Of a stretch of 64,000 bases of DNA, positions 872 through 61,571 are shown one piece after another. The stretch is taken from NCBI GenBank assembly GCA_965645245.1, contig OZ287071.1, positions 248,001 through 312,000 of the forward strand, given 5' to 3'. Numbering within the stretch: position 1 is the stretch's first letter; each line of letters starts with the position of its first letter. The notes below the pieces were generated by a model, which saw only the letters and a program-made list of their open reading frames with translations, ran no database searches and was not told the DNA's origin. Origin of the DNA: Massalongia carnosa (taxonomy: Eukaryota). Both the position numbers and the translations under genes were made by a program.

Positions 872-1650
872 ACTGCTTTATATATTACATCATGTATAAT
901 ATAGCACTGAGCTGGCCTAGCGGGCGGGGCCTAAGCACCAAAGCTTTCTATAGCTTCAGTTGTTTAAACCATTAATTCGGCCGTTGCTGGCAATTAATTA
1001 GTGCTCTGAAGATACTGCAGCCAAATTCGATAAGGAAGACTGGCAATGCTAATCAGAAGATTATCGGTCAAACTTCGGGTAAACCCCTACTAGTGCTGTT
1101 GCATATCTAGGTTTGTTGCATATCCCAGTCATCTCGAGTACCGCGAGACAACAGCGCGCGTGCGAAAGGAGACGAAAAGATGTATCTCGCTGAAGTCGTG
1201 GACGCACCTCATACTTCTTTCCATCATCGTCGATAAGGGATGCGCTTCCATTCCGAAAGTGGTTTAGCACGATTAGGGTAATTATTAGTAGCAATAAACA
1301 CGTCATACGATTTAGTTGAGCCGGTGTTCCGAATACAGGTGAATTACGTTAAACCGAAACGAGTTTAGTGTGTTGTTGGCAGTTGCATTACTAGCTTGTA
1401 CGTACCCTAGATGAGCAGTAAAATGGTTATTTACTAGCAAAGATTTACACAAGGGGGGGACGGTCGGGGGACTGTCCCTAAGCATCCCGTTAAGCCTAGG
1501 CTTGACGTATTCAGCCTTATATGGATATCATTCAGCCGCGCAACAATACAGCTTGACTGATGCTTTCTGTACCACTCATTTCCACAGCCAGCCTCTGCAC
1601 ATTGCTACCAAGCTAGTTGTATAAGTAGAAGAAAGCTAGGACCTTCTATC

Positions 1651-4600
1651 ATGCCAGATAAAGATTTATGCCTATTATCTCTTGATGGCGGTGGAGTGCG
1701 AGGGCTATCGTCACTCGCAATCCTCAAGCGACTGATGGAGATCATCAATCCGGAAACGCCGCCGAAGCCATGCGAGTATTTCGACATGATCGGAGGGACA
1801 AGTACCGGTGGATTGATTGCTATCATGCTAGGTCGACTTGAGATGAATATCGACGAATGTATTGATGCCTATGTCGCATTGTTCGATCAAGTGTTTAAAA
1901 AAAAGCGGCATCGTGTCACAATAAACGGACACGTGCAGGGGAGATTCGACACGGAAGAGCTGGAACGGTCGATTCGAGAAATCGTAAAGCGGAAGGAGAA
2001 GGCAGGGGAAAATGCTCTCCTCAAAGGACCAGAGAATCAGCAATGCAAGGTGTTAGCGCTTCGGAAGTTGCATTTACACGTATAATTCTAGTGATACTAA
2101 TGAAAGCTAGATTTGTATGCGCTCTGAGCAAAGAGACTGCCGACATAGTCCTATTCACATCGTATCCTTCTCGAGGACCATCAGATATGTACCATAAGAC
2201 ACGAATTTGGGAGGCAACTCGAGCCACATCTGCCGCATCATCCTTCTTTGATCCAGTTAAAATTGGCCAGTTTGAAGAAGAATTTGTCGATGGGGCTGTG
2301 GGGGCTAACAATCCTGTCGCACATCTTTGGAACGAGGCCAAAAGTGTGTGGTCAGACGAAGCGCTTGAGGGAAACATTAAATGCCTGATATCTATCGGTA
2401 CTGGTGTTTCATCCTTGGATTCTTATGGCTCAAGCCTCTTCGAGATTGCAAAAAAGTTGAAAGACATTGCAACAGAGACAGAAAAAACAGCGGAGTCTTT
2501 TCATCGAGCGCATTCAGATCTCGACAATGGGAATCGCTACTTTCGTTTCAATGTTTCTCATGGGCTTGAGAATATTGGACTCGAAGATGCAGCACAGAAG
2601 AACAAGATCATGGCCACCACAACCCGCTATGTGGCTTTGGAAAGCGTGATGAAACAAATGAAGCTGTGTGCAAATAATTTTTCAACACGAGAATGTGCGT
2701 CAATGTTTGCTTGATAATTTTTGAGTTACTAAATCCTTGAATAGACACTGGTTCATATAAAGTGCCATTCAGTTTGAAAGGCTTACCCCGTGTACCCAAA
2801 TTCATAGCTCGTGATCAAGAAATGAATGACCTTAAGGAAAACCTTTTTCCTAAGCCAACTCGTGAGACTCACCGGTAGGTGTTCGTTTTGCACGGACTGG
2901 GCGGCTCCGGCAAGACTCAGCTAGCAATCGAGTTCGCTCAAAGATCACAGAAGATTTTTAGTTCTATTTTTTGGCTAAACGGCGATAGCAAGGAAAGTGT
3001 ACGTCAAAGTCTTGCACAGATTGCTCGGCAATTGCCCAGAGATCAGATTCCGGATTCATGTAGAAAATTCTCTAAAATATCCCCTGAAGAGCTAGATGAA
3101 ATTATTCACAATGTTCTTATTTGGTTCAATCAACATGAAAACAATCAATGGCTTCTCATTTTCGATAATGTCGATCGTGATAATTCCCCTGAGGTGAATG
3201 ATCCTCAATCATATGATGTGGAAGATTTTTTCCCGGAAGCCGATCACGGCTCTATTTTAATCACAAGCCGATTACGACAGCTTCGACAACACGGGCAGGA
3301 CCGGCAACTTGGAAGGATGAGCGATATACAAGGAGCAGAAGTATTACGATGCAGGATAGGACGATCAGTTGAAGGTAATGAAATTCAAGCAACAGTCTTA
3401 ATCCAATTTACTAAGCATTATATAGGCCTTGATAGGATCGTCGAGAAAGTGGGTGGTCTCCCACTTGCACTTGCTCATGCAGGCTCCTATATCCACGGAA
3501 CGACTACAAGTGTGAACGACTATATTCGATACTATGAAGAGACTTGGGAGAAGCTTCACAACAACAAAACGACTCGATTAAAAGATTATCCTCGTAGCAT
3601 TTTATCTACGTATACCATTTCCTATGAATATGTGCAACGCAATGACGCGAGCGCTGCAAAATTGCTTAATCTGTTTGCATATCTCGATCATTCAGATTTA
3701 TGGTATTCTTTATTCACACCTGTACTTGACGAAAGCATTATCTCAAAAGAGACATTACCTATCTGGTATTCATGTAGCATGAAGACGGAATTTGATTTTA
3801 CACAGAAGATTCAAATACTGCTGGATTACTCCTTGATAGAAACACGATATGAGATCTCCTCTTATGCGATTCATCCAATTATACATGACTGGTGTTTTCA
3901 CTTGAATCTAACCTCCAACGACGAGATAGCTCTTTTAGCAGTTTCTGTAATCGGTTTCGCATGTCATTCCACTGGCAGTTCAGCAAACTGGCTACATCGA
4001 AAACGACTGGCTGGTCATTGTAGTTATGTTCACTTCTGGATTGGAAAAAAACCTCAAAACCTTGAAAGGAATATGAGATGGGAACAGGTATTATATTTTT
4101 CGTATTATGCTATTGGCTATTTTTCAAAAAAACAAGGCAAGCTGAACGAGGCCGAAGAGATGTATCTGCGGGCATTGAGAGGATACGAAAAGGCCAGGGG
4201 TCCTGATCACACATCAACGCTCGCCACAGTCAACAATCTAGGAATTCTGTATGCAGATCAAGGCAAGATGAACGAAGCCGAAGAGATGTATCTGCGGGCA
4301 TTGACAGGATACGAAAAGGCCTGGGGTCCTGATCACGCATCAACGCTCGAAACAGTCAACAATCTAGGAAATTTGTATGCAGTTCAAGGCAAGATGAACG
4401 AGGCCGAAGAGATGTATCTGCGGACATTGACAGGAAAGGAAAAGGCCTGGGGTCCTGATCACACATCAACGCTCAACACAGTCAACAATCTAGGAAGTCT
4501 GTATAAAAATCAAGGCAAGATGAACGAGGCCGAAGAGATGTTTCTGCGGGCATTGAGAGGATACGAAAAGGCCTGGGGTCCTGATCACACATCAACGCTC

Positions 4601-5665
4601 GACACAGTCAACAATCTAGGAAGTCTGTATAAAAATCAAGGCAAGATGAACGAGGCCGAAGAGATGTATCTGCGGGCATTGACAGGATACGAAAAGGCCT
4701 GGGGTCCTGATCACACATTAACGCTCACCATAGTCAACAATCTAGGGCTTTTGTATGCAGATCAAGGCAAGATGAACGAGGCCGAAGAGATGTATCTGCA
4801 GGCATTGACAGGAAAGGAAAAGGCCTGGGGTGCTGATCACACATCAACGCTCGACACAGTCAACAATCTAGGAAATTTGTATAAAAATCAAGGCAAGATA
4901 AACGAGGCCGAAGAGATGTATCTGCGGGCATTGACAGGAAAGGAAAAGGCCTGGGGTCCTGATCACGCATCAACGCTCGAAACAGTCAACAATCTAGGAA
5001 ATTTGTATGCAGTTCAAGGCAAGATGAACGAGGCCGAAGAGATGTATCTGCGGACATTGACAGGAAAGGAAAAGGCCTGGGGTCCTGATCACACATCAAC
5101 GCTCGCCACAGTCAACAATCTAGGATGTCTGTATAAAAATCAAGGCAAGATGAACGAGGCCGAAGAGATGTATCTGCGGGCATTGACAGGATACGAAAAG
5201 GCCAGGGGTCCTGATCACACATCCACGCTCGCCATAGTCAACAATCTAGGTCTTTTGTATGCAGATCAAGGCAAGATGAACGAGGCCGAAGAGATGTATC
5301 TGCGGGCATTGACAGGAAAGGAAAAGGCCTGGGGTCCTGATCACACATCAACGCTCGACACAGTCAACAATCTAGGAAATTTGTATGCAGATCAAGGCAA
5401 GATGAACGAGGCCGAAGAGATGTTTCTGCGGGCATTGAGAGGATACGAAAAGGCCTGGGGTCCTGATCACACATCAACGCTCGACACAGTCAACAATCTA
5501 GGAAGTCTGTATAAAAATCAAGGCAAGATGAACAAGGCCGAAGAGATGTATCTGCGGGGCTCAAGCGGCTCACCTGTGCCAGGTATGACAATTCTAGGCA
5601 GGACAAGGCTGGATGACATATTCAAACGTCAAAATGAAATCAAATCAATACCGTCTGAAAGCTAG
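1651..5665 (+). CDS. Fungal NLR: patatin-like phospholipase + NB-ARC + TPR array; introns 2052-2110, 2695-2744, 3375-3425; premature in-frame TAG at 2876-2878 (possible pseudogene or truncated allele)
   Basis: Patatin motifs DGGGVRG, GTSTG and DGA; P-loop GLGGSGKT; Walker B WLLIFDNVD; GLPLAL; 42-aa TPR units. The introns have GT donors, CTAA branch points and AG acceptors, and splicing them restores the reading frame. Confidence 0.92.
4133..5557 (+). repeat. 11 complete + 1 partial tandem 126-bp repeats encoding TPR units
   Basis: CAAGGCAAG(C/A)T(G/A)AAC recurs every 126 bp from 4133 to 5519. Confidence 0.97.
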
Positions 5666-15051: not shown

Positions 15052-16155
15052 TCAACGCCTCCACACTAGCCAGCATCTCCTGCGTCTCGTTTGGTAGATC
15101 GTGCTGGCCTGCTCCAGCATCTTGCCGGGATTAAGAGTCGGCCAGTCATGACCAATGCCTTCAATGAAAGCACGGATCATTTTCTCCCGCAAATATCTCC
15201 CTCCTGAAGCCCACACTCGTGTCAATGCTGGACTCGTCACCTCGGTCATTGAGCTGAGAAATCCGGCTCGCTCAATCGCCGAGCTTCTTGCAATATTCCA
15301 ACATAGCAAGTATGTAGTGAAAGTAAAAGTAGTGTGCTCGAGGACGAAAGCCGTGATTTGGCTGAAACTTGAGTTTGGAGCGATGTAACTCGGCGAAGGT
15401 CGTCTCGCCTGAGCCTAGTTTGGCGTTCCACAGCCCTCCTCTATCGAGAACAAGGAACATCCACTCTCGCGGTTGAATTTTATCCTTTGCGGGCACAATG
15501 ACAACCTGATGATTTTCAAAGACTTCTTCAATTACTCCCTGCACAAACAGCCCGTTTTGTGCTTTATTTATCACATGTTCCGCTCCAGGCCCGAATATAT
15601 ATGTCATCGAGCTTTGGCCAAGTGACAAAGGGAAAATATGAGCAGCTTCGATGTTTGCTTTGGGCAATAACTCTCCAGTTGCTGCAGAATACACATATTG
15701 AACGGATCCGATTTTTTGGACCCGTACATTTCCATGAGGTTTTGTTTGAATGCCGATTGATTAGAACAGCTGGTCTTGATGAGAAGGGAGAGCATTAACT
15801 CGAGATATAACGCACGCGTTGACTCGGGATTTGTTGTCGAGATGGTGAATGTAAGACGGACTTGGGTTAGATAGCACCGAATCTTACGGGTAGCCGAGTC
15901 GGTTTTTTCCTGCAGCTCTCCCTTCTTTTGAAGATATTGTCTTTCTTGTTGATGTCTTTCTGAGTCGCTCATATCATCAAATCCCTTCCGCAAAGCTGCC
16001 CATTCCACTTCGACGATCTCTAATTCAGCTTCTCCTTCATCTTTTCTGAAGGACCAATACTCCGCGCTATTCCAACTTTTAAGACTGTTTATGCTCTTTC
16101 GAGCCAGCTTGCGTTTTCGAGAGGCTTCTTTGATTCTGAGACATGCTGATACCAA
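15052..16155 (-). pseudogene. Coiled-coil + fungal HNH-endonuclease (HNH_2-like) protein, two frameshifts
   Basis: Motifs EAAHIFPLS, NGLF and FRPRAHYFYFHY are spread over three overlapping ORFs (15604-16155, 15272-15694, 15052-15309). Confidence 0.7.
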
Positions 16156-17900: not shown

Positions 17901-20188
17901 AGGAGGTGATACAGCAGATAATGCCCAAATCTGGGCGGAGTAGACCAGTAAACACCGACATAAAAAATCCTGACTTGCATGTCTGACCTGCGGACGCCAC
18001 ATGCATGACATAGGAGCTGTTGCCTTCTTGCATGAGCCCCTGACGTTGCCTGATTGCCTTGCTTATTAAATCGTTCAAAGGGAGATTTATCAAAATAGAA
18101 ATTGACTTTGATGATCATGTCATTAATTCCTGTCTTAGTAATATCATGTCGTCTCAAGTCTAAGCGAAAGAATAATGTGTTATAAAATGTCGGGGTTCGA
18201 ACAAGAAAGAGTAACATTCGAAAAGTCTCAACGACACACCTCTCAGCCAAGGTTTAAACTCAAGAAATCAGCCTCGTCTAACAGAAGTAGAGCGTTTTAT
18301 ATAATTAGTCTAACATGAAAGGTTAATATCCAATCAAAACCAAGAACGGGGATCGTCCCTTTTCATATGAACCAGCGCTTCAAGGATTCACTGCATCTGC
18401 TTCAGCCAGAGGAGAGCTATTTCTTTTTGTCAAGCCCTCGAAGTGCCTCTCAAGTGGATGCACGTTACCTGAGAAAGGAAGACAAGGAAATCCATTGCCG
18501 CTCCTAAGGGAGTATCCAGCACGAAAGGTCCCATGAAGCAATGCGTCTGCATCGAAAGCGAGGCTGGCTTTGTTGCTAGTTATTTTTTTGATATATTGGA
18601 TCGACTGGGAGCGAGCGGATATATAGATCATGATGTTATCTCATCAAATGTGTTCTCCAGTCTCAAGCATCAAAAACTATTTCAAAGACACAACCATCTG
18701 CCCCTATCTTCGACTGAGCAATTTGTATTATATCTCCTTTCATCGGTGATCAGACTATACCATTAAAACAGGGAAAGCCCAATGTCTCGTCAAAGGCAAA
18801 CAGCTCCGGCATCCAACAGGTTTCAATTCCCTTCTCACTGATTCCCTCAACGATTTCTCTTCCTCAACTTTAACAACGGTTTATTGACTTCTTGAATCTT
18901 TAGCCTCCACGATGGCTATGAGGTCCGACGCTTCCAAATACTGCTTGATCGGATCAACAAATTTGATTCAAATGGCACCACATCAACTAAGGCCAGCTAC
19001 ACCGGCAATACCCATCAAGGTCAATCCTTGAATAGCGCTAGATCAGGGCAAGGGCCTTTGTCATCCACTCCTGCTCCAAAATCAAGCCAAGGCCAACATC
19101 CTTCATGCTCTTATCATGGCCCATATCTTCAACTACTTCCGGGTCATCACAGCCAAGGATACGGGCTAGCTCCAATGGGTCGTCTTCTCGCTGAAGGCCC
19201 ATCCGATCAACACGCTCTGTTCATCCGGGCCGACACGGGCAAGTTGTCAACGTCCCGCGAATGCACCTGTCGTGAACCATCTTTGGAAGGAGAGGCTCCC
19301 ACGCACGATTGAGAACGCCTGAGGCTGATGCGTCCATGGCCCAGGATATGCGGTATGAGCAGAGATCCGCTGGGGAAGATCATTGAGCTTCTTGGATTCG
19401 GTGCACCAACATTTTCCGAAGCCTCTATCCTTAATTTATGCTTCGTACCGTTTTGAGTGAGGGGGGAAATGTACAACAGTCATTTTTGTAATCTTAACTT
19501 CTTAACTGTCCTTCTTGTCATCCATGTTGAAATCTTCATGCGCCGTGTTGATTCATCCAACAAAAACGCCGAAATCATGACGCTCGTGAAGACATTGACA
19601 TGAATTCAACAAAGCTGCTTCTGTGCTCTCAACGCTAAGCAAATGGACGAGCTACACGTTATCAATCTTTTTTGCGCACGGCCTTGACTGCAATCCCTAC
19701 TTAACCTTTTAGCAAACATTGACATATCAAACACCTCCCCAACAACAAAGTGGTAATGAAGTCATATTCAGAAACCATACCTCATCCCATCTTCTCATCT
19801 CCCAAAACCCACATCTCCGTTCCTCATCCAATTCCACGCTTAACACCGCAGAAGCAACAGACAAACCACTCACCTGATCCTTATTCCAACGTCCTAGCCA
19901 CTCCACCAAGCCTGATCAGCATCCCCTCTCCGCTCTCCCCTACTCTCTTTTATATCTGTCCGTACTTCGATCGTCATAATCAAAACGTCTTTTTAAACCT
20001 GCACGATTGATCAGTCGATCTGCTCGGTCCATGGGCCAACTAAGGAAAACTTCGTTGTCGGGGTTATGACTTGCTTCATCCCCGGCTTTAGTATCACGAT
20101 CGCCGTCAGCCGATGATTCAGCAAGACACTTATCCTAAGTGTGACTCGAATGCAAAACTAGGTTGTATTCTATACTCGTGAGGCCCAG

Positions 20189-20277
20189 GAGTGTGTCTGT
20201 TTCCTATCAGGTTAGTATTCCCCGCTACCACATCTGATTTTGAGTGATGCTAACCTGAATAGGAAACAGATACACTC
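20189..20277 (+). repeat. ~30-bp inverted repeat forming an 89-nt hairpin
   Basis: GAGTGTGTCTGTTTCCTATCAGGTTAGTAT versus ATGCTAACCTGAATAGGAAACAGATACACTC. Confidence 0.85.
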
Positions 20278-21166
20278 ACAGGTAACACAGCAGAACCCAC
20301 TGGCCGTGTTCGTCGATGATCATCGGAACCGGGTGGGCCCAGACGGGAACGTTAGAAGCGGGCCAACAGATTAACTTTATCATGCACAACAGATCCAATC
20401 GTGACTTTCAGCCACAGCTGAAGGCGTTTCAGTTCCGTGAAGGGATCAAGCACATCGAGAAAGGTACTCTGGTATAGATAGTTGAGAGCTGCTGGTTGAG
20501 GTTATATCCTCAACGTGCCCCCCATTATCTCGTTTCAATTGGTTGCGACTAAGGTTCGTGCAAGGACTGTGCCCTTCTGATCAGAGAACGGCTGATAACT
20601 TCATTTTCTTTGTCCAATCGTGAGATATATACCTAGGTGCTTAAAATAAAGAGTTACTTTCAAGTCTCAAAGTCACATTGGACATACTTAGCGCATATTT
20701 TTGCATGAACTGCAGTTCTCCAGCAGATTTTGTGAACCTTAATAGCTAAGAGGATCTTAACTTGCGCTTGACAACATGCCCTCGACTTCTCATGCATCGG
20801 TGCAAGTCGTCATGCGGTGTCGCGATTTTTCGGTGCCGATTTCATCACATCGGTATATTCTGCTCCGGCAGTCCAATGCTTTCGCTATCCGGGCTCTTTC
20901 TCGACGGTGTAACTTTAATGGAGCATGTTGCCGGTGCAGTCAATGGGATTCAAACAACGAGGCAAACTGCGGCCTAGTCTGAAGATCCACTTTGGAGGCA
21001 ATTGACCATCGAGATTTCCCGCTTTAGATGCCCTGAAGTCGCTGAGCGTTGAGATTTGTAGTGGGCTTCCAGGCCTGATTTCAGCTAATAAGGAGCGGCG
21101 CAGGAAGGCACGTTGATTGCAGTGGTTATACCGTTTTAATTTGCAACTGAAGTACGAGTTCCTGTC

Positions 21167-21238
21167 GGCCTGCTGGGTCAGAAACCTCTACGTGGTGCAG
21201 GCTATCAACACCTCCTCGGAGGTGGCCAATATCTGATC
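21167..21238 (+). ncRNA. HDV-like self-cleaving ribozyme (predicted)
   Basis: P1 GGCCUGC/GCAGGCU with a G1.U wobble; P2 GGUCAGA(A)/(U)aUCUGAUC; P3 ACC/GGU; L3 UCUACGU; single U-A P1.1 pair; P4 CACCUC/GAGGUG; J4/2 GCCAA containing the putative catalytic C (21226). Confidence 0.85.
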
Positions 21239-21804
21239 ATCGCCAACGCGGAAGTCCACCTCGGTGGCCATTTGAACGATCAACGTCTCTACTGATCATT
21301 CGTCACCTCGAAGGCACACATACAAAGCCCATTCATTCGGAATGGCCACACCCTTCAGGCGGAAGCCTTTCACCTCATCTCGAAAGCCCATTCATTCGGA
21401 ATGGCCACACCCCTCAGGCGGAAGCCTTTCACCACATCGAAAAAGCCAATTCATCTAGAATGGCCACACTTACACACCTTCATTTATACGACACCACGAT
21501 CTGCCCTCGATCACGGCCAGTCTTTCCTCCATTGAATCAAAACGTTTAAAGAGAGAGAAAGTTCGTCGAACGTGTGGAAATACACTGTCTAGTTCATCGA
21601 GTCTATAGGATTCCTAACGCTTGACGATCTGGGTGTATGCACCGCGTGGTAGAAGGACGGTCTCGTTGCGTTCAACATGGAACAAGGGAGTGGTTTTACC
21701 CTGGGGCCAGGTTTCCACTTCCTGAATGTTGTTTATGTACATAAATAGCAGTCACAGCGTCATATCCTTAGGATACATACGCTTAATGAATTAATAAAAA
21801 AAAA
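21167..21804 (+). mobile_element. Non-autonomous A-tailed retroposon (SINE-like), copy 1
   Basis: 13-bp TSD ACGAGTTCCTGTC (21154-21166 and 21805-21817), AATAAA/poly(A) 3' end, no long ORF, and a second copy at 54796-55318. Confidence 0.93.
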
Positions 21805-23839
21805 ACGAGTTCCTGTCTGGCTCGAGCTAAGCAAATGATTCCGTAAGAGTCACTTCCGCAAGAGAAACCACGATAAGGTGTACAGCTACGTTTCGTCCAA
21901 GAATGGGAGATAATCGAGGTACTAAATTCAATATTGGGCATTATTTCTAAGTGATGGTCCTATGCTTCTATTAAAACCTCTTACACCATCTTCACAGAAG
22001 AATCACCCGAGAAAAATGCAGCGGATTCGTCAGAAATTATCAGGTACCTCGTACGATATCATTAAGCTATTCATTCCAATTTCTTCTTTCTCAAGCTTTG
22101 CGATTTCGCATTCTCCTTGTACATCCTCCGCAAATTCGCTCACGAACCCGTCTAATGAACCCGCCGATCTTTCTTCCAATTTTTTTTTTCAAGAAATATG
22201 TCGCTTGCGTTACGTATATCACTTGAATTTCTCTACCGCAGGACCAACCATTGAGCATAGTAAAGCGATGAGGGAGAGAAGGGAGAGTGGAGCAAAAGGT
22301 GGTGCTTTCGCGCGTCGGAGAAGGCAAGATACTGTAGTATTGTAGGCTAAGGGGGTGAAGGGAGGAGAGGAGCGAGAGGAACAATGCGGTGAGGATAATG
22401 GACAGGTAGATGAAGCGGGAGGAGAAAGAAAGGAAGAGAGAGGGACAAGAGTATGTAGATAGTAAGGATTCTGGAGAGATTGAGAGTGAAAATAGGAAGA
22501 GGAGAAGGATATGAAGGTTGGAGGTGGGAATGGGAATATCTATGTGATTCAGAGCTTTTGAACGGCATCGTGCATCCTTTAAACTCACGGGATTTTTTGT
22601 ACCGAATAAAAAGTTGATGACATAATGTTGAAAGTACTACGGAGGTGACTGCTTGACGAAGTATTGCAACAGTGACTCGTGAAACGCAGCCATCTTGCGC
22701 ATGTTGCTATTCTAGTGTTTGCACGTGTGACATGATATCGTTCGTGCACCACGAAAGAAGTGAATGATCTTTCCCTTCTCTGTTAGCGTTCGGTCTTATC
22801 TTATTCACACATTGGATGCCGGCATGACTACTTCGCTAGCTCTTAGTAAGCTGATGCGTTTCTTGTTAGATTCAAAGTTCATACATGACAGATTTTCGAT
22901 AGCCGACGAACAGTGTGATTGCTCTCTAAACAAGTCGCAGGAAACAAAACCAGAGAAACATGATCATCCCACCATTGGGCCAGCGCTAACAGAATCGAAC
23001 CTACATATTACGATAGTAAAGGTCTTCACTGTTATCGCACTTTACTCGTAGTCACCATCTAAGGCTTGAAGACGCCGGCTGGCTCTGTCCGGGCATTAAA
23101 CAGTCGGTCAGAGAAATGATTCTTATACGAACCACTTGAGCAGATTTTCTACCTTTGCATGAGAAGTCAACCACAATTTCTGTTCTCGCAAACCACGCTA
23201 TCACTATTTCTGCTACTACTCCGATAGTTACACGACCATAGACTGGTGAGAAACGGCCTGCCAGCTAGCCAGCCAGCCAGCCAATTGAGGCATAACGATA
23301 GCAGAGGAAAGGAATATAAGCTCATATCAATCACCTAGCGCTGACACGACTCAACCAGCTGCTATGGTTTCCATTGGGCATACCAGCCGATCTGATGTCT
23401 ATCTCACCATGAACAAAGGAATCAGGCACCAGCGTCAACTGATCGTCTAGCGTCGCATCTTCTGCGAGAACAAGCCTCCGTGCATGTCAGAGTTGATGGC
23501 TGCGCTGTCAGCTGAACCTGAAGACTGCCGCGGCAACATGAAAAGATCTACGCCGCTAAACTCCTCCGTCGCAATGTAGTGGTTTTCGGCATCGAGGTTC
23601 ATAGTTGAGCCTTTCAGCAGAAAGACAGCGCGAGATGCGGAGCGTTAGAATCATTGTGTGTCGGGTTTTGAGACACCGTTGAAGGTATTTCCATGCTTTA
23701 GATATCAGAAACCCGACTAGCCCTAACCCTATATTTCCTTGAACATTTATTGTCTCTTCTAACCCTAAGATCTGTGCACAGCACATATAAGACAAGACGG
23801 AGCCTTACCCTCAAAGCGGTAGTGGAGTTATATACCACA

Positions 23840-24916
23840 ATGACCACCGACACGAAAGCCGAGGATACAGGAGCGGAATCGTTACAAGCACAAGGAGAAC
23901 AGCAAGCCACGGTGAGAGTAGTCTCCATCCTCCAAGAGCTCTTGATTATCACCAGAGAGTAAGCACGATTCAAACCCACGGAAACTGATCCATCAACAGG
24001 CCCCGAATGAAACCCCCTACACCCTCTCCTACGCCCTCCGCACCTCTGGCTTCTTGCCTACTCCAACCTCGACACGTTCTGTCTTCCGCAAACCTTCTTC
24101 GGAATCTTCGGCGCCCTCTCAGGCCCCATCCTAACGAGCAACGCGACCCCGAGTTTCCTCGTGATCTTCTCCCGCCTCCCGCAAGCCTTCCTCTGGGTGC
24201 TCCTAAATCACCATAGTCTTGGAGCTGGCGAACCAGCGCCTCCCCGAATCCGTCAAGGAAGACTCCATCAACAAGCCCTGGCGTCCTCTCCCCGCAGGCC
24301 GGCTTACCACCCGCTCCGCCACCCCGCTCACATTCCTGGCAACACGGCTCTACCTAGGCGGTAGCGAAGAAACCGCTCTGCTCTTCATGTTCGACTGGAT
24401 GTACAACGACCTCGGCGGCTCGGATGATAGCGCGGCCGTTCGTAACTTGCTCATCGCGGGCGCGTACGTGCTGTACAGCTCCGGAGCCATGCGCGTGGCG
24501 TGCGGCGTTCAGGAATGCACTCTCAACCCCGTCGCCTATCAATGGCTTGGGATCCTCGCAGCCGTGATATTCACCACCATGCACGTCCAGAATCTCAAAG
24601 ATCAAGAAGGCGATCGTGCACGAGGCCGCCAGACGTTGCCCACCGTGGTCGGTCATGTAGGCGCACAATGGGTGATCGCCCTGCTCGTGCTGGTGTGGTC
24701 CGGTGCGAGTCCTCGATTCTGGAACGTGGGGATCTGGGGGTATGTGTCGCCGGGTGCGCTGGGGGGCTGGGTGGCGTATCGGGCGCTGATCCTGCGGGGT
24801 GCGAAGCGGATCGACGAGCATGGAAGGGGTGGAGTTTGTGGCTTATGAGCCTGTACGTTTTGCCGCTGGTTAGGGGTCATTCGGTTTTCGGGAGGGCGGT
24901 GGAGGGGTGGGGTTAA
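23840..24916 (+). pseudogene. UbiA-superfamily prenyltransferase / membrane terpene-cyclase-like gene with at least 3 frameshifts
   Basis: Motifs ANQRLPESVKEDSINKPWRPLPAGR, MYNDLGG and HVQNLKDQEGDRARGRQTLP. Intron ~23912-23999. Frame switches near 24045, 24210 and 24800. Confidence 0.8.
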
Positions 24917-54466: not shown

Positions 54467-54795
54467 GATAAAAACTATTGTTCCGTATTTGTAAGATCAA
54501 TAATTTGAAGTAACTGAAGTCGATTTGTCTCGGATCTTTAAAATATAATTACTGAAATTAATTATCACTTCGAAGAAAAAAAAGCTGCTCCTTTATATGC
54601 TTGCTTATCATATATGAAACTGCGAGCGACTGAATCTCGAAAACATACCCGATCAGGTTAACTTGAAGAGAAGTTTAACTTCTATTCTTTTTCTTCTATT
54701 ATTTTTTCTTCAAACTTGGATAGAAAATCGATAGGAGTACTTCGTATCCTATTAAGAGTACTTGAGTAAGAACATGTCTACATAATATGAGCAGC

Positions 54796-55318
54796 GGCCT
54801 GCTAGGTCAGAAACCTCTACGTGGTGCAGGCTATCAACACCTCCTCGGAGGTGGCCAGTATCTAATCATCGCCAACGCGGAAGCCCACCTTGATGGCCGT
54901 TTGAATGATCAACGTCTTTACTGATCATTCACCACTTCGAAGGCATACAAAGCCCATTCATTCGGAACGACCACACTTCCACACCTTCATTTATACGACA
55001 CCACGATCTGCCCTCGATCACGGCCAGTCTTTCCTTCTCTGAGTCAAAACGGTTAAAGAGAGAGAACGTTCGTCGAACGTGTAGAGATACACTGTCTATT
55101 TCATCGAGTCTACAGGATTCCTAGCGCTTGAAGATCCGAGTGTATGCACCGCGTGGTAGAAGAACGATTTCGTTGCGTTCACTATGTTGTAAGGGAGTGA
55201 TTTTACCCTGGGGCCAGGTTTCCACTTCCTGACTTGTTGTTTATGTACATAAATAGCAGTCACAGCGTCATATCCTTAGGATGCATACGCTTAATGAATT
55301 AATAAAAATAAAAATAAA
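54796..55318 (+). mobile_element. Non-autonomous A-tailed retroposon (SINE-like), copy 2, with a mutated HDV-like ribozyme at 54796-54867
   Basis: 12-bp TSD AATATGAGCAGC (54784-54795 and 55319-55330), (TAAAAA)n tail, colinear with 21167-21804. Confidence 0.93.
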
Positions 55319-55511
55319 AATATGAGCAGCGCTAAACAGCGTTTAACTAAGTACATAAGATGCGCACATCGACGCGCTGTGCCCTAGCAAACCATCAGTC
55401 ATGGTTTTCGCTTACTAAAAGAGTCACTGGGGTGAACTATTCTCCCTTTCCTATAAGTGAACTTTACCAGGCTATGCACCATGCAGTCCTGTCCTTTTCA
55501 TCACTTCTCCG

Positions 55512-59628: not shown

Positions 59629-59738
59629 TCTAGAGTGTTTGCGCGTTTGTTTACTTTCAAAGAATACTATTCGGTCATTCAATCAAAATAAATCACATAA
59701 ATTACTATTCTTCTAGCTTCGGAATTGATATTATAAGT

Positions 59739-61571
59739 ATGACGCTCAATGAAGAAGAAATCCCGAGTGTATCAGACAAATCTCCCATTTCAGCGAAGCA
59801 ACATAAAATAAATCGCAAAAGAAGTGTTCGGGATATTTTAATCGACCTTCCCCCTATTTCCTCAAAATATACCCCCATTCGGGTTGAAAACAGGCCTTTT
59901 GTTCCGCTCGTTGAAAACGATTCTCGAAATCCTTTGGGATTATTTCGGTTATTTATAACAAGGCAGCATTGTCGTATCATCGCAAATCATACCAATATCA
60001 AGGCAAATAACTACATGGAAAAGGAGAAGGAAAACAATCATCGGGTTTGGACTGACACTACTGACTCGGAAATTGAGGTTTTTTTGGGCATATTAATTCT
60101 TATAGGACTCGATCATCTACCTGCTACAGAGGATTATTGGAATCAACGTCCTGACAAACCAGTTATCATGCCTATTCTGTCCGCGATGTCGCTTGGTCGA
60201 TTTCAACAAATCAAACGATTTTTGAAAATCAATAATGGACAGACTGAGCCTATCGGACTTGGTCAAGGACCTGATTGGTGGAAGAAACTGGAACCGTTGG
60301 CTACTGATTTCCGAAAGACTTCATTGAAACATTGCAGACCAGGAAGTATGATATCTATAGATGAACAGCTGGTGTTATTCAAGGGCCGTTCTCGACATAC
60401 CTTGCAGATTACTACAAAAAGTGCCCATAAAGGATTTAAAATCTACAGTCTCTGTCAGGATAATTATCTGTTGTCATTTATGTTTGCCTCGAAGAGTAGC
60501 AGAATAAGTGAATTGAAAACAGTCAGACAATTGGGATTTTTGCCAAAAGATAAACTAACTCCTAGTGCTTTGCTAGTGATTCAGTTATGTAAAGAACTTC
60601 CATCCTCACTGAATTATCATCTTTTCTGTGATAATTTCTTTACTAGTACGAAATTATTCAAGGCACTTCGATCAATCGGAATAGCTGCCAGTGGAACTGC
60701 TAAAAAGGGCTCGGGCTTTCCAGAAGAATTGTTGGCCATACGGGACGTCACTTCAAAAGGAAAAGACTGGGGTCTTCAGGCCCATATGGTGGTCGACGAT
60801 AAGGTGCTTTGTATGGGCTGGGTGGATAATAATGGTGTGCAGTACATGACCACCGGTCATTCTCCTCAGGACTTGTACGAAATGCACTATATAAATCCGC
60901 ACAAGAGATATGGAATTCCCGAGACCTCTCTTCAACCTATTGTATCGTATTTCCCATCAACTCTGGCTCACTCCATTCCCTTGCTCAATCAAGAGGTTCA
61001 ACGGCCCTTAGGATTACCGATACCAGCCCCAATCAAAGAATATAATCTTCATATGGGGGGATCGGATGGAAACGCTCAGCAACGAGCGATTTACTCATAC
61101 AATCGTCGAACGGATCGTTACTGGTGGCCTTTGTTCATTTTTATTTTAGATGCAGCCGGATTGAATGCCTATAAACTTTACTCGCTGAACTCTTTCGATT
61201 CCGAGGAGATAAAATTTACTCGTTCTGAATTTCTTCGTCGGATTGCTCTTGAACTGATATCAAATCAAGCGGGCATCAGGCCCGGCTCATCAAAGATAAG
61301 CATCAATACCACGATTGATGCTTTAGTACCATCTCCCATTCATCATTACGTTCGTCTTGAAGGCAGAAAAAGATGTGTGCAATGTAACGCCGAGAAAAAA
61401 CGACCTTCAAAGCGGAAGGGAGAGCCACTGGCTGAAATAAGTGTCGATGGGCGTAAAAGAAGGCGAAGGGGTGCTCAGACTATATGGGCTTGTGGAGGAT
61501 GTAATCCAATCAGGCCCTGCTGTAAGAAAGCCAGCTGTTGGGAAGCTATTCATATGATAGGGGACGAGTAA
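59739..61571 (+). CDS. piggyBac (PGBD/DDE_Tnp_1_7) transposase, 610 aa, intact
   Basis: SIDEQ, CDNFFTS, YNLHMGGSD (DDD triad), YWWPLF, and a C-terminal Cys-rich domain (CVQC...CGGC...C...CWEAIH). Confidence 0.93.
   Translation: MTLNEEEIPSVSDKSPISAKQHKINRKRSVRDILIDLPPISSKYTPIRVENRPFVPLVENDSRNPLGLFRLFITRQHCRIIANHTNIKANNYMEKEKENNHRVWTDTTDSEIEVFLGILILIGLDHLPATEDYWNQRPDKPVIMPILSAMSLGRFQQIKRFLKINNGQTEPIGLGQGPDWWKKLEPLATDFRKTSLKHCRPGSMISIDEQLVLFKGRSRHTLQITTKSAHKGFKIYSLCQDNYLLSFMFASKSSRISELKTVRQLGFLPKDKLTPSALLVIQLCKELPSSLNYHLFCDNFFTSTKLFKALRSIGIAASGTAKKGSGFPEELLAIRDVTSKGKDWGLQAHMVVDDKVLCMGWVDNNGVQYMTTGHSPQDLYEMHYINPHKRYGIPETSLQPIVSYFPSTLAHSIPLLNQEVQRPLGLPIPAPIKEYNLHMGGSDGNAQQRAIYSYNRRTDRYWWPLFIFILDAAGLNAYKLYSLNSFDSEEIKFTRSEFLRRIALELISNQAGIRPGSSKISINTTIDALVPSPIHHYVRLEGRKRCVQCNAEKKRPSKRKGEPLAEISVDGRKRRRRGAQTIWACGGCNPIRPCCKKASCWEAIHMIGDE

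Follow-up and report, generated by a model that had tools for sequence, protein, structure and literature searches.

A non-coding element of 638 bp at positions 21167-21804 (+) of a 64,000-nucleotide stretch of DNA from Massalongia carnosa (contig OZ287071.1; the whole stretch is hereafter called the window) is a non-autonomous retroposon without long terminal repeats (non-LTR retroposon). It is similar in size to a short interspersed nuclear element (SINE) and has been active recently. Judged by fold, the first 72 nt of the element constitute a predicted ribozyme of the hepatitis delta virus (HDV) type, an assignment that is supported by the helices described below and that would make the element RNA self-cleaving. 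In the explanation that we consider best, with a probability of about 0.7, this HDV-like head would cut the RNA of the element from longer transcripts, and the RNA would then be copied in trans by a long interspersed nuclear element (LINE); we infer the cleavage, the source of the transcripts and the participation of the LINE.

Boundaries, copies and mobility of the element

The limits of the element were read from the sequence and from the target-site duplication (TSD). The two copies of the TSD, ACGAGTTCCTGTC, form a perfect 13-bp repeat at 21154-21166 and 21805-21817. The base past the right copy, T21818, differs from the first base of the element, G21167, and the 5′ boundary is, therefore, unambiguous. 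At the 3′ end, an AATAAA signal (21793-21798) overlaps with a run of nine A's (21796-21804). A BLAST search of the element against the window showed that the 64 kb contain two copies. Copy 2, at 54796-55319 (+), is about 89-90% identical to copy 1 (90.3% over 185 nt and 88.8% over 385 nt). Its first bases are likewise GGCCUGC; it possesses an A-rich tail consisting of AAAAAT repeats and is flanked by a perfect 11-bp repeat, ATATGAGCAGC, at 54785-54795 and 55320-55330. Since the right repeat is followed by a G, the boundary of copy 2 is ambiguous by 1 nt.

The region is contained in eight sequencing runs, including three of organism A (88-94% of the window words), one lichen metagenome (41%) and organism B (32%). 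Contigs of the runs X1, X3, X4, and X5, the latter being organism B, were placed on the window at a likeness of at least 80%. One of them, record 15 of X4 (4472 nt), which derives from a related strain in a lichen metagenome, joins 21153 directly to 21805 and contains one copy of the TSD, i.e., it represents the empty site; its flanks differ from the window at a few bases. The insertion of copy 1 is, thus, polymorphic and recent. The family to which it belongs is clearly very abundant: in X1, 1950 contig pieces were found, and the summed depth on the element was 244-1267 times that of the flanks, a depth ratio that is not a copy number.

The 5′ ends of the copies coincide to a large extent. 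Among the contigs listed, the 'before' loose ends were located at 21165-21167 in 19 of 28 cases in X1, 24 of 25 in X3, 22 of 23 in X4, and 8 of 10 in X5; these counts refer to the rows listed, next to which there are 246 further rows. The consensus of the flanks at these 5′ loose ends was low (0.40-0.57). At the other side of the element, the 3′ loose ends of the contigs cluster at 21803-21805. The same start was found in open reading frames (ORFs) that run from a flank into the head. A frame through the head (P0001) matches nine called ORFs on megabase-size ENA contigs, which possibly stem from the assembly that also contains the window, and six flank-to-head ORFs (P0002, P0004, and P0011-P0014, cluster members included) are located on six contigs of differing size. 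In all seven read-through ORFs, i.e., P0001 and these six, the unrelated flank gives way to PAGSETSTWCRL at one common NGG codon, which encodes R in five of the frames and G in two, and the shared sequence begins with PAGSETSTW. When the translation of the head was compared with shorter and longer proteins, no fused or LINE-linked form of the head was found in the protein database, and 20-mers specific for the family had no matches in collections of metagenome, prokaryote-genome and viral contigs.

In one contig each of X1 and X3, the tail is joined to a head (21795 to 21167). This joint may represent either a tandem of two copies or an insertion of one copy into the A-tail of another. In such an arrangement, transcripts of the upstream copy could run into the ribozyme of the following one.

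Between the head and the tail, the copies vary in length. A repeat search revealed 59-bp direct repeats at 21324-21469, with two full units and a partial third. The number of units differs among copies, with nearly three in copy 1 and one in copy 2, and many of the deletion joints in the contigs are located within 21320-21490. The 3′ body (21490-21795), which is 88.8% identical to that of copy 2 and is covered by long contig pieces over 21490-21791, is common to all copies and is a candidate for the region recognized by the reverse transcriptase (RT). A coding function of the element was considered and rejected, as a 132-codon frame at 21151-21546 has no match in Pfam and does not stay open in copy 2. 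With this frame being the only long one, the element is without an RT or endonuclease of its own. At position 21277, where the window has a C, 46-76% of the summed contig depth, depending on the run, shows a T, and copy 2 has a T there as well, which completes an ATG codon. Database ORFs of 128-148 aa that start with MINVSTDHS (P0003 and P0005-P0010) translate the 59-bp repeats. Given the variable count of repeat units and the lack of a Pfam match for the window frame at this position, the MINVSTDHS frame is probably not a gene.

In an earlier note on this DNA, the element had been described as a 638-bp non-coding sequence with a poly(A) end and a 13-bp TSD, which is borne out by the 9-A tail and the perfect 13-bp repeat. 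That it is a mobile, multi-copy, TSD-flanked and poly(A)-tailed element is confirmed by the second copy with its 11-bp TSD, the empty-site allele and the unrelated flanks. Heterogeneous 5′ ends among the copies, which the note had named beforehand as a refuting outcome, were not observed: the read-through ORFs and most of the contig junctions listed agree with each other.

The predicted ribozyme in the first 72 nt

A permissive Rfam scan (cmscan) was performed on the region 19000-24000 (5 kb) and then on the whole 64 kb against 4227 families. The model of the HDV ribozyme of the F. prausnitzii type, RF02682, matches 21167-21238 (+) over its full length (positions 1-74 of 74) with 29.9 bits, corresponding to E-values of 0.011 for the 5-kb region and 0.14 for the 64 kb. 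Position 1 of this model is aligned to G21167, which would be the G at +1 of the cleavage site. The HDV ribozyme model RF00094 matches 21165-21240 with 25.1 bits (E 1.6 in the scan of 19000-24000). At E-values up to 10, the whole window yielded three Rfam matches, i.e., the heads of the two copies (E 0.14 and E 0.91) and one unrelated short match. The head of copy 2 is located at 54796-54867 (+) and scores 26.4 bits with RF02682. Thus, in both window copies the model starts on the first base behind the TSD, in agreement with the proposal in the earlier note that the predicted cut 5′ of G21167 falls on the junction between TSD and element. The scan with HDV-like models that the note had suggested, thus, aligned RF02682 over its full length from the first base of the element, though under its gathering score.

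The helices (all on the + strand) were checked base by base. P1 is formed by 21167-73 and 21197-203 with 7/7 pairs, opens with a wobble pair (G21167.U21203), and is also formed in the minimum free energy fold. P3 (21184-86/21194-96) has 3/3 pairs and encloses L3 with the sequence UCUACGU (21187-21193). Together, P3, L3 and P1′ show a 14-nt identity to the consensus of RF02682. They are followed by AU in J1/4 and then CAA (21204-21208), where A21204 can pair with U21189. P4, which was also found in the computed fold, is a hairpin (21209-21224) with 6/6 pairs between 21209-14 and 21219-24 and a 4-nt loop. According to the Rfam alignments, it is followed by J4/2 (GCCAA, 21225-21229), in which C21226, within the motif GGCCAA, is aligned to the catalytic cytosine in the GGCUAA motif of RF02682 and RF00094. 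P2, which is outside the covariance-model score, is a pseudoknot between GGUCAGA (21176-21182) and UCUGAUC (21232-21238) with 7/7 pairs, including one G.U pair; its 3′ strand ends the ribozyme module. Among 3′ segments that were shuffled or random, 3-5% contain a 7-bp P2 by chance. Hence, a nested double pseudoknot with P1, P2, P3, and P4 in canonical order is present, and its layout matches that of Rfam-confirmed ribozymes from metagenomes. The same helices had been proposed in the earlier note, which was correct for P1, P3, L3, P4, J4/2, and a P1.1 consisting of a single U-A pair. It had also assigned eight pairs to P2, of which seven are contiguous; the eighth pair, A21183-U21230, would need a bulged A21231.

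Variation within the head is unevenly distributed. The head of copy 2 differs from that of copy 1 at three positions, i.e., 21175 in J1/2, 21229 in J4/2, and 21235, where a P2 pair is broken (C-A). The heads of the database copies differ from copy 1 at three residues, which, by single-base inference from the amino-acid changes, correspond to 21205, 21206, and 21227. Over eight copies, five of the six substitutions in the head are located in joining strands, one in P2, and none in P1, P3, L3 or P4 (P 0.006, in a small sample in which three of the substitutions are deduced from amino acids). In the contigs of the runs, 37 variant rows in the element are listed, next to 16 further ones; among those listed, none is located in 21167-21249, where 4.8 were expected (P 0.006).

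A degenerate pattern of the core was found at 120 loci or more in metagenomes. Most of the 122 matches listed are without P1 and P2 pairing, but ten of them combine 7/7 P1 pairs with at least six P2 pairs, and six of these ten score in cmscan at E-values up to 1. The calibration with cmscan covered 14 of the 120 loci listed. With RF02682, three loci of the bacterial type reach 70.7, 70.5, and 51.1 bits (L026, L048, and L068, respectively). Two loci located directly behind tRNA genes reach 32.2 and 33.5 bits (L052 and L065, respectively), and two on AT-rich, eukaryote-like contigs 36.9 and 33.6 bits (L062 and L100, respectively). As the latter four loci, all with 7/7 P1 pairs, are in the range of 32.2-36.9 bits, structurally complete HDV-like ribozymes apparently often score in the low 30s, like the head in the window. 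These same four of the seven loci have L3 UCUACGU, AU in J1/4, CAAC, and GCCAA in common with the window head. Across the lineages with this core, P3 is either ACC/GGU or GCC/GGC, and P1 and P2 are wholly different in sequence, yet they are paired in each lineage. This comparison of helices was made by parsing each sequence separately, as a MAFFT alignment of nine ribozymes placed the helices inconsistently. Because the loci were picked for pairing, the cross-lineage pairing supports the class and its AU variant, not this particular head independently. Five GC-rich loci (L042, L079, L096, L112, and L089), which are located within long ORFs and have no cmscan match, were rejected as chance matches. 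Among the loci listed, no LINE headed by such a ribozyme was found.

Some further features of these metagenome loci were observed. In L062:463-541 (-) and L100:283-361 (+), which have a GC content of 0.25-0.29, the ribozyme immediately follows 11 consecutive A's. Between these two loci, both bases of the first P1 pair are changed (U-A to C-G), as is one base of the last pair (U.G to C-G). The sequence upstream of the ribozyme is common to both, so that no retroposon junction is seen. L052:267-338 (-) and L065:5993-6063 (-) are HDV-like ribozymes with a P4 stem, the second one located inside an array of ~30 tRNA genes, and they resemble the tRNA-associated theta ribozymes of phages.

Proposed release from longer transcripts and competing explanations

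In the mechanism that we propose, a copy of the element would be transcribed within a longer RNA, which may arise by read-through from the host, from an upstream tandem copy, or from a promoter of its own a few bases upstream. The ribozyme would fold during transcription and cut 5′ of G21167, by which all element RNAs would start at one base and carry a 5′-OH. After polyadenylation of this RNA at the AATAAA signal, the endonuclease and RT of a LINE would act in trans and would perform target-primed reverse transcription from the A-tail, yielding full-length insertions flanked by duplications of 11-13 bp. Every new copy would again carry the ribozyme. Since the ribozyme is copied along, each insertion could be released again from any transcript running through it.

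Several observations weigh against this explanation. The Rfam scores are lower than the gathering scores of the families (29.9 vs. 44 for RF02682 and 25.1 vs. 50 for RF00094), which places the head outside strict Rfam membership, and the nested fold exceeds shuffled sequences in stability by a modest margin only (z -1.73), with 9 of 200 shuffles being at least as stable. Whereas P1.1 usually consists of two pairs, only one, U21189-A21204, is present in the head, with the adjacent C-U unpaired, and a single-pair P1.1 goes along with slow cleavage in other HDV-like ribozymes, such as CPEB3. With its broken P2 pair and the change in J4/2, copy 2 illustrates that not every copy is expected to cut. 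If the two window copies alone are compared, the difference between head (3/72) and body (43/435) is not significant (Fisher P 0.18), and within the family there is no helix variation from which covariation could be read. The RT or endonuclease domain of a LINE partner was found by Pfam in none of the 78 window ORFs of at least 110 aa, next to which 184 ORFs of 70-109 aa are listed. Finally, an internal promoter with its start at +1 could also give a precise 5′ end.

Such a promoter is central to an alternative that we consider unlikely, i.e., a dual head as in Pr77 of trypanosomes. In this case, the head would mainly be an internal promoter that sets the 5′ end at +1, and the ribozyme fold would serve as a backup or persist as a relic. 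The first 77 nt of L1Tc and NARTc are described as both an internal promoter and an HDV-like ribozyme (PMC3185411; PMC3383444). An element without a promoter should rarely reach hundreds of copies, yet the family is very abundant, and the weak P1.1 would also fit in this picture. On the other hand, nothing in the window shows promoter activity, though no promoter search was made, and the complete double pseudoknot has been kept together with the catalytic C. The substitutions spare P1, P3, L3, and P4, as would be expected under selection on the fold. Moreover, promoter and ribozyme functions are mutually compatible.

It is rather improbable that the head is an inactive relic, i.e., a true descendant of an HDV-like ribozyme that has lost its activity via an eroded P1.1 and that is kept for binding of the RT or as a stabilizing 5′ structure. 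The single pair in P1.1 and the score under the gathering threshold are consistent with such a loss, and a role in binding has a parallel in the R2 protein, which is described to bind the ribozyme region in the 5′ untranslated region of R2 (PMC6765202). However, the core with AU in J1/4 is found in four other loci, in at least two unrelated settings and with P1 and P2 fully paired in different sequences, which argues that this variant is functional. In addition, an inactive head would leave unexplained why the predicted cut matches the first base of the element.

That the head is an ordinary retroposon 5′ end with a chance resemblance to a ribozyme is highly improbable: the scores under the Rfam thresholds, the whole-window E-value of 0.14, which is not compelling alone, and the z of -1.73 for the fold leave some room for it, but it would need three independent coincidences, i.e., a match over the full length of the model, a 7-bp P2 in place (0.03-0.05), and the alignment of model position 1 with the first base of the 638-bp element, the combination of which makes chance unlikely, and it would have to account as well for the 14-nt identity of P3/L3/P1′ to RF02682 and for the listed metagenome matches with 7/7 P1 and at least six P2 pairs, where six of the ten score in cmscan and the other four are GC-rich and within an ORF.

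A wider reading may be considered, albeit tentatively and with more doubt than confidence. In fungi, the 72-nt head might be a portable, promoter-free start module. Distinct retroposon families of related lichen-associated fungi might share only this head, the combination of the head with a tail recognized by a LINE might make any RNA mobile, and hundreds of sense-oriented copies might scatter RNA-cutting sites in the transcription units of the host. Families sharing only the head are suggested by X5, where four contigs diverge from the element right at the point where the ribozyme ends, after 21238. Should this reading be true, a ribozyme-headed retroposon system would have been described in fungi for the first time, and it would directly affect the integrity of host mRNA.

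The element is of interest for several reasons. With it, the association of HDV-like ribozymes with non-LTR retroposons, which is known from animals and trypanosomatids, would also include fungi. Since it has neither a Pol III head, i.e., one derived from a gene transcribed by RNA polymerase III, nor an ORF, such an abundant repeat is likely left unclassified by the standard classifiers for SINEs and LINEs, and recognition of the head offers a simple rule for finding the family. The family is young, as indicated by the perfect TSDs, the near-identical database copies, and the insertion polymorphism between strains, and it could, thus, be used as a strain marker. An active ribozyme would cut the RNA of every gene in which the element is inserted in the sense orientation. 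For mechanistic studies, the head is also of use as a naturally occurring HDV-like core in which P1.1 consists of one pair.

Known relatives, host and other features of the window

HDV-like ribozymes are described to release R2, RTE, baggins, and L1Tc/ingi (PMC6765202; PMC3185411; PMC4035085; PMC3414825), and non-autonomous derivatives with such a head include NARTc, RIME, SIDER, and the R2 SIDEs (PMC3185411; PMC4035085; PMC3414825). Like the element described here, NARTc, RIME, and SIDER are short, non-coding, poly(A)-tailed and flanked by TSDs. Their first ~77 nt are reported to constitute an HDV-like ribozyme with its cut at +1, and a LINE mobilizes these elements in trans (PMC3185411; PMC4035085). 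They differ in the kingdom of their host, i.e., trypanosomatids vs. a fungus, and the likeness to Pr77 described here refers to the architecture. In Penicillium chrysogenum, Pr77-like sequences with a compatible fold are mentioned, solely as unpublished 'laboratory data' (PMC3185411).

The R2 SIDEs of Drosophila are also non-autonomous and keep the 5′ HDV-like ribozyme together with the 3′ end required for target-primed reverse transcription (PMC3414825). However, they are site-specific in the 28S rDNA and are released from a co-transcript of RNA polymerase I, whereas the element has unrelated, unique flanks and a poly(A) tail with AATAAA. An identity as R2 SIDE was ruled out: the two window copies and six database copies have flanks that are unrelated to each other and that are not rRNA.

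The ribozymes of RF02682 and the theta ribozymes share the core with the head, i.e., P3 and L3 with CCUCUACGUGG, CAAC, GGCCAA/GGCUAA, a 7-bp P1 and the P2 pseudoknot. They are described as located in the leaders of bacterial mRNAs or behind phage tRNAs, not as heads of retroposons (PMC6765202; PMC10879173). They also differ in J1/4, which is AGG in the bacterial RF02682 type and AU in the head of the element. In the literature, no retroposon headed by an HDV-like ribozyme was found to be described in fungi or lichens, where a fungal case in the tables or supplements of earlier ribozyme surveys is possible. Judged from these comparisons, the element would work like NARTc or RIME and would add a further kingdom to a kind of retroposon that is already known.

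Classical fungal SINEs, such as Mg-SINE and Foxy, have a tRNA-derived Pol III head, are short and non-coding, depend on a LINE, and possess an A-rich tail and TSDs. In the element, the ribozyme head is present in place of the Pol III promoter. No similarity to tRNA, 5S RNA or 7SL RNA was found: the window contains no tRNA genes, and there was no such Rfam match at E-values up to 10. The tRNA-gene and Rfam scans, thus, agree with the earlier suggestion that the element lacks a tRNA- or 5S-type Pol III head. In the absence of such a head, the element is SINE-like, not a SINE in the strict sense.

The host had been taken to be a fungus, with which an NLR-type gene, a Fung_rhodopsin domain and the presence of the region in a lichen-metagenome run are consistent. 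It is an ascomycete, probably one associated with lichens. The NLR-type gene architecture comprises patatin-like, NB-ARC, and TPR_10/TPR_12 domains in consecutive frames at 1561-5665 (+). Around copy 1, ORFs without family matches are located, and copy 2 lies ~140 bp upstream of a frame with DUF7730. A 645-codon frame at 59634-61571 (+) with the domain of a piggyBac-type transposase (PF13843, DDE_Tnp_1_7; E 8.4e-52) may represent either an intact DNA transposon or a gene that has been domesticated. A 162-codon frame at 15275-15760 (-) contains an HNH_2 endonuclease domain (PF13391; E 1.8e-08). Further genes recognized in the window by Pfam include a para-aminobenzoate (PABA)-synthase-like gene, a frame with the Fung_rhodopsin domain, and PIG-U.

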